Shown here piece after piece: positions 35,901 through 38,900 of a DNA stretch of 45,487 nucleotides (within the stretch, counting starts at the first letter, position 1; each line of letters begins with the position of its first letter). The DNA lies in IMG/VR virus record IMGVR_UViG_2872185964_000010; one strand, 5' to 3'. The position numbers were made by a program. Source of the DNA: a virus. Taxonomy: Duplodnaviria > Heunggongvirae > Uroviricota > Caudoviricetes.

Positions 35901-38900
35901 AAGTCTTCATCATTCAGACGAGTGAGGGCTGGGACAGTAGCCATGATGGCAGCCTCCTTGATCGGTGAAATACTTCCACCACCGGAAACGCCAATTTCGC
36001 TGGTGGTGAACTGAACGGGGTTGGCGTAACCGGTGATCAAGGAAACCGGCGCATCTTTCGATGCCCCCGCCCAGCCCACCATAACTTTGATGTGAGCAAA
36101 TGCGGACGATAAAAAAGACGCTGGCGCGTCATATATCGCCTTGATCAATTCCAGGACGCCAATCCCGGCACCCGCTTTATAAGGTGCCTGAACAGTGTAA
36201 CGTCCCGGAATGGCAGAATCAATGTGCTGGTGGTCCTTCACACTCAACAAAATCACGCTTGAATTTCCACAAAGGACTAAAGCACTCATGCGGGTAGTCT
36301 TTGCGAAGATAGATAACGCGCTGTGTTTCTGGCTCCCAACGAATAACATGAACATAAAGTCCTCTTCCGTCACGAAACCAGCGGTTAAGTTCCTGCACAA
36401 CTCGCCCCCACAGTCAGGTAAAGTTCTCTGTGGTTACTTACAGCCAGGAGATTTGGTAATCTGCATTCATGCCGTAACAACAGGTGTTCAGCGACGCTGA
36501 CCACCAGCTGTTGCGACAAACGGTTATTTGCCGTTAAACTGTTCATGCGTTAGTTTCTCCACAGACACAAAACGCCACGACGCCCGGAGCTGCACACTCG
36601 CGGGCGTCACTCTTTTCTGGAGCGCAAAAGATTTTGTAGACCAGTGCTGCATGCTCCTGGAGCTTCGAAATTGACAGATACAACTCATCATTAATTGCTG
36701 TCTGCTCGTGTGGCTCCACTACCCCATCTTCGATTGCCGAACGAATCTGCTTTGAGTAACTCCCGATCTGTTCGATGACTTCCAGCAGGCGCTGGTTTAT
36801 ATCGGCGTTCTCTACTTCCTCAATTTCAGGAAGCGATACAAACACCCCACCAGCAGACTGTGCGACAGCATCCGCAATGTAGTGAGTGCCAGCCGCGCGC
36901 TGTAAAATCATTGCCCATCCCAGCGGGAAAATCTGATCGCCATCTGCACGAAGGCGGTTGAATAAAGCGTTCTCTGTTACATCTAGCCACTCAGCAGCTT
37001 CAGCGTACCCCCCGGCAACGCCGCGATAGTTTTTCTGACAGCTTTCACGTACCACTCAGGCTGTTTTTCTACTTTCCAGTGATGCTTACCCACGGTTAGC
37101 CTCATCGTTCTGTGGTTAAAAATTGAAGGTGTTCTGTTAATCTTTCGGATAGATATCCGGTCTTAAGTCAGATTTCGTAATTGCACCTGACGTGCATTGC
37201 TCAAGTTTTTTAGCCAGCACAAAACTGGCTTTTTTATAACCATTGAAAACCAGCCGTAAATAGCCTGGTGTTGAGCCAACTTTTCCGGCCAACTCGCCCT
37301 GCTGTTCTTTGGTTAAAGAGTCCCAATACGCTTTCATACAATATGTACCTCCGATATACATATTACATGATTGAGATGAACCTTCAAGATACTTGTACCC
37401 TATCGGTACAAAGGTTTTAATTTCGTTATGAAAACAGTCCATGACATCCGGCGGTCTAACGCCAGAAAACTGAGAGATGGTGTTGGCGGGAATTCTTCCT
37501 TTGCCACCATGATTGATCGCGAGCCAACCCAGACCAGCAGGTTTATGGGAGATGGTGCTACTAAAAATATCGGTGACAGCATGGCACGGCACATCGAAAA
37601 ATGTTTCGACCTGCCTGTCGGATGGCTTGATCAAGAACACCAGACAACAAACATCACAAAAAAACCTGATGTTTCAATTACTAACAAACAAATAACGTTA
37701 GTCCCTGTCATATCATGGGTACAGGCCGGAGCATGGAAAGAAGTTGGCTATTCTGAGGTTGATTTGAGCACAGCAGAAACTTATCCCTGCCCTGTACCCT
37801 GTGGCGAAATGACTTATATCTTGCGGGTGATTGGTGATTCAATGATTGATGAGTACCGCCCGGGAGACATGATTTTTGTAGATCCTGAAGTCCCTGCCTG
37901 CCACGGTGACGACGTTATTGCATTGATGCACGATTCAGGCGAAACCACCTTCAAGCGGTTGATAGAAGATGGAACACAGCGTTATCTCAAAGCATTAAAC
38001 CCAAACTGGCCTGAGCCTTACATTAAGATTAACGGTAATTGCTCTATAATTGGTACAGTGATTTTCTCGGGAAAACCAAGAAGATACACAATAAAGGCCT
38101 AATCAATATTTATGAACCTGCTTCGGCAGGTTTTTTTATGCTTGACAATGTACCTATTAGATACATAATGTATCTAAAAGAAACATAACACAGGCAAGAT
38201 TAAAACAAAATTTGGTTGTAACACGGCGTATGGCACATGCGTCGTTAGCGGTCTGGTGACGTTAAAGGGGACAATCCACTCCTTGCTCGAGCAAACAAAC
38301 CAGGTAGCCGGAATGTGCAAGTCAATGATGATGCTGATAAGACGCCTAACCAGCGTGGCGATTCGGTTTGACGCCTGGGAAGAGACCAGGGTGCAACGAT
38401 GAGGGCATTTATGGAACCGCGACAAAGTGTGGTGCCGTAACTGGCTAAGTGCTCTCAGCGTTGTGGTAATCCGCGAAATGGCGCGGCGGTAAGTATGGCG
38501 GGGTTACTCTTTCCCCGTTGAGGACACCGGATTGTCAGGTTGACCATACGCCTGAGTGACAACCCCACCACAACAGCCACTGCTTTGGCGGTACCAGTTT
38601 GTACACTTGCTTCCGGCTGGTACCGCTCTTTTTACAAAACAGAGAAGAGCATCACCGGACGACGGGCTCATAACCCAATCCATCCGGGCGGCTGCCACCG
38701 CAGGTGTTCTTCTCTGTTTTGTGGAGAAACCAACCGACCTTGCAGGGTCGATATGATTAGGAGCAGAAAAATGGCTAGCGAACGCAGTACTGATGTGCAG
38801 GCATTTATTGGGGAGCTGGACGGCGGCGTATTTGAAACCAAAATCGGCGCAGTTCTCAGTGAAGTCGCTTCCGGTGTGATGAACACGAAAACCAAAGGTA

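Follow-up and report, generated by a model that had tools for sequence, protein, structure and literature searches.

A predicted e14/SfV-type immunity switch in a lambdoid prophage, with one operator family at OR and pL

Genes and promoters of the control region

The DNA analysed here, referred to below as the window, is the whole 45,487-bp stretch of the IMG/VR virus record IMGVR_UViG_2872185964_000010. We studied the region in which a cro-like gene and a cI-like repressor gene diverge, separated by a 90-bp control region, together with the promoter that follows the repressor gene. This region is very likely the lysis-lysogeny control of a lambdoid prophage of the e14/SfV (ymfK/ymfT) immunity type. 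Its predicted operators lie in the right operator region (OR), between the two genes, and on the left promoter (pL), beyond the end of cI. The coordinates of all features are given in Table 1. A previous reading of the same DNA, made from the sequence only, had described a cI/cro immunity switch with a single operator family at OR and pL, and this was borne out by the gene content, by the phylogenetic footprint and by the covariation with the recognition helix reported below. Its divergent cro-like gene is present, with a minus-strand start codon at 37337-37335, one base to the left of the start coordinate 37338 that had been given.

For comparison, related loci were gathered by a scan with a repressor profile, taking one genome per species. 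The scan gave 27 loci with full-length repressor homologues, 42-99% identical, and these included Klebsiella, Atlantibacter, Leclercia, Pantoea, Serratia, Rahnella, Edwardsiella and Erwinia, and also Proteus, Rosenbergiella, Salinicola, Halomonas and others. The divergent arrangement of repressor and cro was found in 26 of the 27.

The pL-like promoter is directed away from cI and matches the consensus at 11 of 12 positions in a simple promoter scan. Its hexamers TTGACA and CATAAT were invariant across 25 loci, and the record of phage Ayreon annotates a "promoter" at the equivalent position. The intrinsic terminator between cI and pL is kept in relatives and is also annotated in the SfV and Ayreon records. 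No N-type antitermination module was found after pL, where the interval 38187-38770 contained no N-like open reading frame (ORF) and no Rfam match. The N module is part of the early-left operon of lambda and not of the switch itself. SfV-like phages have been reported to be without N, cII and cIII.

On the other side of the control region, we infer the placement of the rightward promoter (pR) from its sequence and its conservation. Relatives carry TAATAT or CATAAT at the position of the pR -10, and the TTG of the predicted -35 (CAA on the plus strand) is also conserved. The promoter of the repressor gene (pRM) is predicted to be leaderless. No usable Shine-Dalgarno sequence was found before the ATG of cI, either in the window or in the relatives, and hexamers resembling the pRM -10 (TCTAAT, TGTAAT, TAGAAT and similar) were found in relatives 6-9 nt 5' of the ATG. 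The ymfK gene of e14 is among five leaderless mRNAs that were detected in E. coli K-12 through differential RNA-seq (PMC4681348). Alignment of e14 with the window shows a single base difference in the interval between the operator named site c below and the ATG. Because the ymfK mRNA is leaderless in e14 and the two OR regions are almost identical, transcription from pRM would begin with the first base of the cI ATG (A, 37428) or close beside it, and the left half of site c would serve as the -35.

Table 1. Predicted features of the switch region (positions in the window; operator arms in capitals, central 5 bp in lower case; bits, score with the 19-bp matrix)
Feature	Position	Strand	Description
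cro-like gene	37137-37337	-	66 aa; start codon is the complement of 37335-37337; equivalent to ymfT/croE of e14
Operator a (OR1-like)	37343-37361		ATGTACC-tccga-TATACAT; 2 mismatches in 12 core positions; 13.7 bits
Predicted pR -10	37360-37365	-	TAATAT; read from sequence
Operator b (OR2-like, weak)	37376-37394		ATGAACC-ttcaa-GATACTT; 10.7 bits
Predicted pR -35	37382-37387	-	TTGAAG; 16 bp from the -10; read from sequence
Operator c (OR3-like)	37393-37411		TTGTACC-ctatc-GGTACAA (TTGTACCctatcGGTACAA); 0 core mismatches; 24.6 bits
Predicted pRM	37393-37421	+	-35 TTGTAC (37393-98), 17-bp spacer, -10 TTTAAT (37416-21)
cI-like repressor gene	37428-38102	+	224 aa; equivalent to ymfK/cohE
Intrinsic terminator after cI	38114-38140	+	stem-loop GAACCTGCttcgGCAGGTTT at 38114-38133, then T run
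pL-like promoter	38142-38169	+	TTGACA (38142-47), 16 bp, CATAAT (38164-69)
Operator OL1	38148-38166		ATGTACC-tatta-GATACAT; 1 core mismatch; 25.3 bits
Operator OL2	38168-38186		ATGTATC-taaaa-GAAACAT; 15.7 bits

Five predicted operators

The predicted operators are five dyad-symmetric sites of 17-19 bp, three of them in OR and two in tandem on pL. They share the core TGTACC-N5-GGTACA, with the consensus ATGTACC-N5-GGTACAT. In OR, site a covers the start region of pR together with the Shine-Dalgarno sequence of cro (minus-strand GGAGG). Site b is centred on the pR -35, at about -43 from the pRM start, and site c, centred at about -26 of pRM, covers the -35 and the spacer of that promoter. The centres of a and b are 33 bp apart and those of b and c 17 bp, so that b and c abut. 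On the other side of cI, OL1 fills the spacer of pL and overlaps its -10, and OL2 covers the pL start region at a centre-to-centre distance of 20 bp from OL1.

The sequence-only reading had reported a perfect palindrome between the divergent genes, with an imperfect copy nearby. The palindrome was found again at exactly the same position and is site c; its 7-bp arms are perfect and its 5-bp centre is asymmetric. The imperfect copy corresponds to site a. The third site of OR, site b, had been missed. At pL, the same reading had described a related half-site and a separate perfect 19-bp palindrome. The half-site belongs to the same family, but it is part of a full operator, OL1, which has the best score in the window. 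The palindrome also exists, at 38158-38176, as TAGATACAT-a-ATGTATCTA (TAGATACATaATGTATCTA) with perfect 9+1+9 symmetry. As judged from the sequence, it is made up of the right half of OL1, one base and the left half of OL2, and the junction spells the CATAAT of the pL -10. It is not a separate element, because the loci of Proteus (L026) and Rosenbergiella (L027) retain OL1 and the -10 while OL2 is absent.

Together, a repeat finder and a matrix scan brought out the five related dyads. Allowing up to 2 mismatches, the core TGTACC-N5-GGTACA gave 3 matches in the 45,487 bp, against about 1.0 expected, and all of them lay in OR or pL. A 19-bp matrix was then trained only on c and OL1 sites, 49 in all, taken from 26 loci outside E. 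coli, in order to avoid circularity. When the window was scanned with this matrix, the first five ranks were OL1, c, OL2, a and b, and the sixth match scored 5.2 bits. The assignment of a, b and OL2 as operators is based on their positions and on their conservation in relatives.

Conservation in relatives and repressor specificity

Within 145 kb of related loci we found 115 matches to the core with up to 2 mismatches, where about 3 would be expected by chance. Nearly all (109) lay within 100 bp upstream or 110 bp downstream of cI. They stood at fixed offsets, which were -84, -51 and -34 relative to the ATG and, past the stop codon, about +47 and then 20 bp further. Four others were found in the spacer of a displaced TTGAC promoter, 1.6-2.2 kb downstream of the start of the repressor gene, in Halomonadaceae that have extra genes after cI, and the last two look like chance.

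These Halomonadaceae loci belong to Salinicola, Halomonas and Phytohalomonas (L030 at about 4097, L032 at about 4300 and L033 at about 4683-4733). The operator lies there in a pL-type spacer, for example TTGACG-a-TGTACCtaaaaGGTACT-TTAATA. The extra genes, placed between the repressor gene and the pL-type promoter, resemble in this respect lambda rexAB, which stand between cI and pL.

Each site could be followed across the relatives. All 27 loci keep site a, at -84/-88 from the cI ATG. For site b, the pattern ATGAACC..CAAG was conserved, and matches with up to 2 mismatches were found at -51/-53 in 16 of the 27 loci. Site c had no mismatch in 17 of the 27. In sites c and OL1, the latter with invariant half-sites in 25 loci, the columns of the half-sites carried about 2 bits each and those of the 5-bp spacers about 0 bits. 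Half-sites of about 2 bits with free spacers are the signature expected of a dimeric protein that reads two half-sites. OL2 was more variable: its left half ATGTACC was conserved in most Enterobacterales loci and its right half G.AAC only weakly so. Among the closest relatives, e14, SfV and Ayreon differ from the window at few OR and OL positions, most of which belong to operator spacers or to the weaker half-sites of a and OL2.

The half-sites also vary together with the repressor. In the recognition helix, residues T34, Q35, S37 and R38 were nearly invariant wherever TGTACC was retained, including in the Vreelandella protein, which is 42% identical. More distant homologues (35-40% identical; among loci L034-L063, L071 and L072) retain the layout and carry a different helix together with different half-sites at the same location. 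The helix SSYLSQVR goes with ATTAGC-N5-GCTAAT, and within the same set of loci the helix PSYISRCL goes with TTACC..GGTAA. This covariation over the TGTACC, ATTAGC and TTACC types supports the earlier suggestion that the operators reveal the likely specificity of the repressor. From their sequences, the distant homologues and their own half-sites look like a family of immunity types that extends across the Gammaproteobacteria.

Repressor and Cro proteins

The cI-like protein matches Pfam Peptidase_S24 over the whole profile (E 2e-26). Its C-terminal domain matches that of lambda cI (E 1e-9), with FKRL aligned to the FKKL of lambda, and the predicted fold also matches lambda cI, with a template modelling (TM) score of up to 0.79 on the target; the matched structures include the RecA-bound structure 8gmu. 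Among the homologues, Ser138 (in GDSM), Lys176 and Q99 were nearly invariant; the Ala100-Gly101 site is also there. A profile of the N-terminal domain matched the SPC32H Rep DNA-binding domain (5d50) over residues 1-72 (E 2e-10), as well as "phage repressor CI" 7nkv. When superposed on 5d50, the repressor model gave a root-mean-square deviation of 2.0 over 74 columns, with 36% identity. In the model, a helix at residues 22-28 and a turn are followed by the recognition helix PTQTSRFM at residues 33-40, within a helix-turn-helix (HTH) domain of residues 1-70. The protein thus appears to combine an N-terminal HTH domain with a C-terminal S24 domain that carries the Ser/Lys dyad and the Ala-Gly site, and its self-cleavage is predicted from these residues.

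The Cro-like protein matches Pfam YdaS_toxin with E 1.5e-5 and 25.1 bits, where the curated cut-off is 30, and HTH_3 with E 0.0065, below its cut-off. Among solved structures, it weakly resembles the Cro proteins 8co2 and 8c7k. In 26 of the 27 related loci, the same position is taken by a homologue whose GYLRLVFNGYKK helix is conserved. The neighbouring gene on the cro side encodes a regulator of the CII (CP76) family.

In one e14-type locus of E. coli (L003, strain SCPM-O-B-8794), the cro frame at about 2410 on the minus strand is 133 aa long and not 66, and the C-terminal end differs after residue 61. This points to either a frameshift or fusion to the gene that follows.

Proposed action of the switch

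We propose that dimers of the cI-like repressor bind the five operators, and very probably the Cro-like protein binds them too. In a lysogen, repressor on OL1, between the -35 and the -10, and on OL2, at the start site, would occlude pL. Binding to these two sites would probably be cooperative, because a centre-to-centre distance of 20 bp puts them on the same face of the DNA; the lambda-like C-terminal domain also suggests it. Repressor on a, over the start and the cro ribosome-binding site, and on b, over the -35, would occlude pR. At b, the repressor would probably also stimulate its own transcription from the weak leaderless pRM, because the position of about -43 matches that of lambda OR2, which lies at -42 of the lambda pRM. 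Site c may act as an OR3-like shut-off of pRM, because it covers the -35 and the spacer of this promoter; its role would be either negative autoregulation by the repressor or that of the first target of Cro. The perfect palindrome stands on pRM and not on pR, and the main repression of lytic transcription probably does not occur there. After DNA damage, RecA would stimulate self-cleavage of the repressor at Ala100-Gly101 by Ser138/Lys176 of the S24 domain, and the prophage would be induced. The sequences of the sites, their positions and conservation, and the folds and homology of the proteins are results of the present analysis, and the leaderless start in e14 was shown by others; binding, the site preference of each protein, activation from b, cooperativity and cleavage are presumed by analogy with the lambda, 434 and P22 paradigm.

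Several points weigh against this interpretation. The predicted pR and pRM each match the consensus at 8 of 12 positions, and neither was detected by the simple promoter scan. OL2, a and b individually score below the best shuffled score (16.8 bits). The conservation of the outer operator bases overlaps in part with promoter hexamers, namely TTG in c and CATAAT where OL1 meets OL2, and cannot be credited to the operator alone. No Pfam HTH family matched the N-terminal residues 1-75 of the repressor, and the HTH assignment of this domain is predicted from the homology to 5d50 and from a model with a predicted local distance difference test score of about 80. In the accessible literature we found no operator-binding experiments on the repressor or Cro, whether by electrophoretic mobility shift assay, footprint, genomic systematic evolution of ligands by exponential enrichment (gSELEX) or reporter; the repressor is called there only "putative", "CI-like" or "SOS-sensitive", and nothing relevant came up on the solved Cro and CI relatives 7nkv, 8c3k, 8c7k and 8co2. 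The order of occupancy is also uncertain, because the best OR site is on pRM and not on pR and because b and c abut at 17 bp, neither of which is lambda-like.

With regard to this order, it is conceivable, though we consider it doubtful, that the e14/SfV switch follows a non-lambda occupancy logic. The switch would then show tight negative autoregulation or a Cro-first action at c, cooperativity between a and b (33 bp) and between OL1 and OL2 (20 bp), and possibly looping between OR and OL over about 800 bp. In nearly all of the 27 species, the OR site closest to the consensus is c, usually as a perfect palindrome on the repressor's own promoter. Site b is weak, with a conserved T-to-A change, and the pR start is guarded by a site that is fused to the cro ribosome-binding site. 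If this were true, a non-lambda switch design would be present in about one third of E. coli genomes.

Alternative explanations of the palindromes

The conserved dyads could in principle be read as something other than repressor operators. Site c at 37393-37411, followed by AGGTTTTAAT, was picked out by a simple scan as resembling a terminator, with 7 pairs, a 5-nt loop and a tail rich in T, which would make the palindromes RNA hairpins or intrinsic terminators. We consider this extremely unlikely, since no transcription unit on the plus strand lies upstream, cro being on the other strand, and since relatives do not keep the T run (they have, for example, GGTACACACTGTTTAAT and GGTACAGAATGTCTAAT). 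Both arms are invariant, without the compensatory changes of a hairpin; the conserved TTTAAT would serve as the pRM -10, at the right distance for leaderless transcription; and a terminator would be senseless within the pL spacer, where the same dyad is found again. That spacer also bears on the idea that the conserved blocks are promoter elements only, with an incidental dyad symmetry and no recognition by a repressor. Several conserved positions do coincide with promoter hexamers: the TTG of c belongs to the pRM -35, CATAAT is the pL -10, TAATAT abuts a, and CAAG in b is part of the pR -35. However, the invariant GGTACA of c lies in the pRM spacer and the TGTACC..GrTA of OL1 in the pL spacer, and sigma-70 spacers need no particular sequence. 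A 6-N5-6 dyad with five copies, all confined to two regions of the 45 kb, and half-sites that change together with the recognition helix in distant relatives, make an explanation by promoter elements highly improbable.

A different regulator might be involved instead. The perfect 9+1+9 palindrome TAGATACATaATGTATCTA at pL could be the independent site of a second regulator with everted half-sites 1 bp apart, and most Enterobacterales relatives conserve the 15 bp at its centre (GrTACATAATGTAyC). This has little likelihood, because the element is fully explained by the composition given above and contains the pL -10, its second half is gone in Proteus and Rosenbergiella where OL1 and the -10 are kept, OR holds no such everted dyad, and OL2 taken as a 19-mer is the third-best matrix match in the window. 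Direct SOS control by the host LexA, without any phage repressor, is hardly credible. The half-sites do contain TGTA/TACA like SOS boxes, and e14-type prophages have been reported to be SOS-inducible; but the geometry is TGTA-N9-TACA and not CTGT-N8-ACAG, of which no copy was found in 37338-38200 and two were found elsewhere in the window, a chance-level number against 0.79 expected. The division inhibitor of e14 has been reported not to be under LexA control, and the element encodes an S24 repressor of its own. Recognition of the five sites by the phage repressor is the reading that we prefer.

Elsewhere in the window, a perfect SOS-box-like dyad, CTGTTTATTTTTACAG at 28918-28933, overlaps the first codons of a 350-aa ORF (27891-28943, minus strand). 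With 2 matches found where 0.79 are expected, it may be due to chance.

Structured leader downstream of pL

The leader that follows pL (38187-38770, 584 nt) contains no convincing ORF and folds with z = -5.5 compared with shuffled sequences. It is a candidate for a conserved and unannotated structured RNA, as suggested by its sequence. A core element was located at about 38223-38466, with an invariant 19-mer, GGTAGCCGGAATGTGCAAG, at 38303-38321. Unrelated phages carry copies with 79-83% identity in stretches that have no annotation. The copy immediately precedes tRNA-Arg(UCU) in the Uetakeviruses phiV10, TL-2011b, SPN1S and BUCT711, and in P7 it stands between a tRNA, which it directly follows, and ban; P1-type phages also match. 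The exact 19-mer was present in more than 120 viral contigs of IMG/VR.

Through the comparison of 79 distinct copies, we found a common fold with compensatory changes in three helices and with the conserved loops UCACCA and GGAAGAG. Examples of compensatory pairs among the 79 copies are UA 46/CG 33, CG 49/GC 26 and CG 41/GC 33. No Rfam 15 family matched the element; a scan of 37000-39300 at E<=1 gave sub-threshold hits to STnc50, rsmX and mir-9412. ARAGORN found no match in 38000-38900, and a literature search with the exact sequence of the 19-mer found no papers.

A strong terminator-like hairpin was found in the leader at 38588-38633, composed of GCGGTACCAG, 19 nt and CTGGTACCGC, followed by TCTTTTT. 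The first early-left gene, a yfdP-like gene at 38771-39133, follows some 140 nt further on, and no N-like gene was seen between pL and this hairpin. The leader as a whole is a mosaic of modules at about 38210-38466, 38460-38582 and 38586-38770, each of which has different phage relatives. The leader RNA is a lead separate from the operators, and a more intriguing one.

Comparison with known systems

The region is not new: it is a common, annotated and ordinary immunity type of E. coli phages. The sequence-only reading had proposed a comparison with known immunity types; carried out here, it found near-identical DNA and the same half-sites in the e14/SfV type. Over 37100-38250 of the window, the identity was 99.7% with Stx2c-converting phages, 98.5% with cdtI, 97.9% with Ayreon, 96.4% with SfV and 95.4% with SfIV. 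The phages SfIV, cdtI, Ayreon, 2H10 and the Stx2c phages are grouped with SfV, at 95-99.7% nucleotide identity over cro-OR-cI-pL. In complete E. coli genomes, the region was matched in 1922 of 5426 (~35%), with identity of up to 99.8%. The RefSeq names in these E. coli matches are ymfK (LexA family) and ymfT (YdaS family), which are the names of the e14 repressor and Cro.

The OR operators have also been seen before. The "putative operator region" 26377..26445 of the SfV record (GenBank U82619) maps exactly to 37343-37411 of the window, its limits being the outer ends of a (left) and c (right). The OR operators were thus recognised, as putative, more than 20 years ago (GenBank 2002). The SfV record is without annotated operators at pL. 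As for e14 of E. coli K-12, the gene pair, its spacing and the operators are the same as in the window. The differences include the right half of site a, which is TGTACAT in e14 and TATACAT in the window, and the left half of OL2, which is ATGTACC in e14 and ATGTATC in the window. Downstream of pL, e14 and SfV have a ymfJ-like gene after about 100 nt, whereas the window has the 584-nt structured leader and then yfdP/Q/R-like genes.

The practical value of these results is modest. They give a sequence-level definition of the operators for an immunity type that is common in E. coli and Shigella (e14, SfV, SfIV, cdtI and some Stx2c phages). The consensus and the five sites, with their promoter assignments, could be used for the prediction of homo- and hetero-immunity, for the annotation of switches in Enterobacterales and Halomonadaceae, and for the design of reporter and induction experiments. 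The operator finding itself raises no new question, and the region behaves as a textbook lambdoid switch.

The likeness to lambda includes the divergent cI and cro genes, a tripartite OR over pR and pRM, further operators on pL beyond cI, a cI mRNA without a leader, and an S24 C-terminal domain, by both sequence and fold, with an Ala-Gly site. The half-site is TATCACC in lambda and TGTACC in the window. The N-terminal domain of the window repressor belongs to another HTH lineage, that of SPC32H Rep, and its Cro is all-helical and YdaS-like. The OR spacings are 33 and 17 bp, compared with 24 and 23 in lambda, and the OR site closest to the consensus stands on pRM and not on pR. Two OL sites were seen where lambda has three, and no N gene follows pL. 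With SPC32H Rep (5d50), the window repressor shares a homologous N-terminal DNA-binding domain. SPC32H Rep is reported to be inactivated by an antirepressor and to bind DNA as a tetramer. Its C-terminal part is not an S24 protease, whereas that of the window repressor is like lambda cI, so that self-cleavage would be expected.

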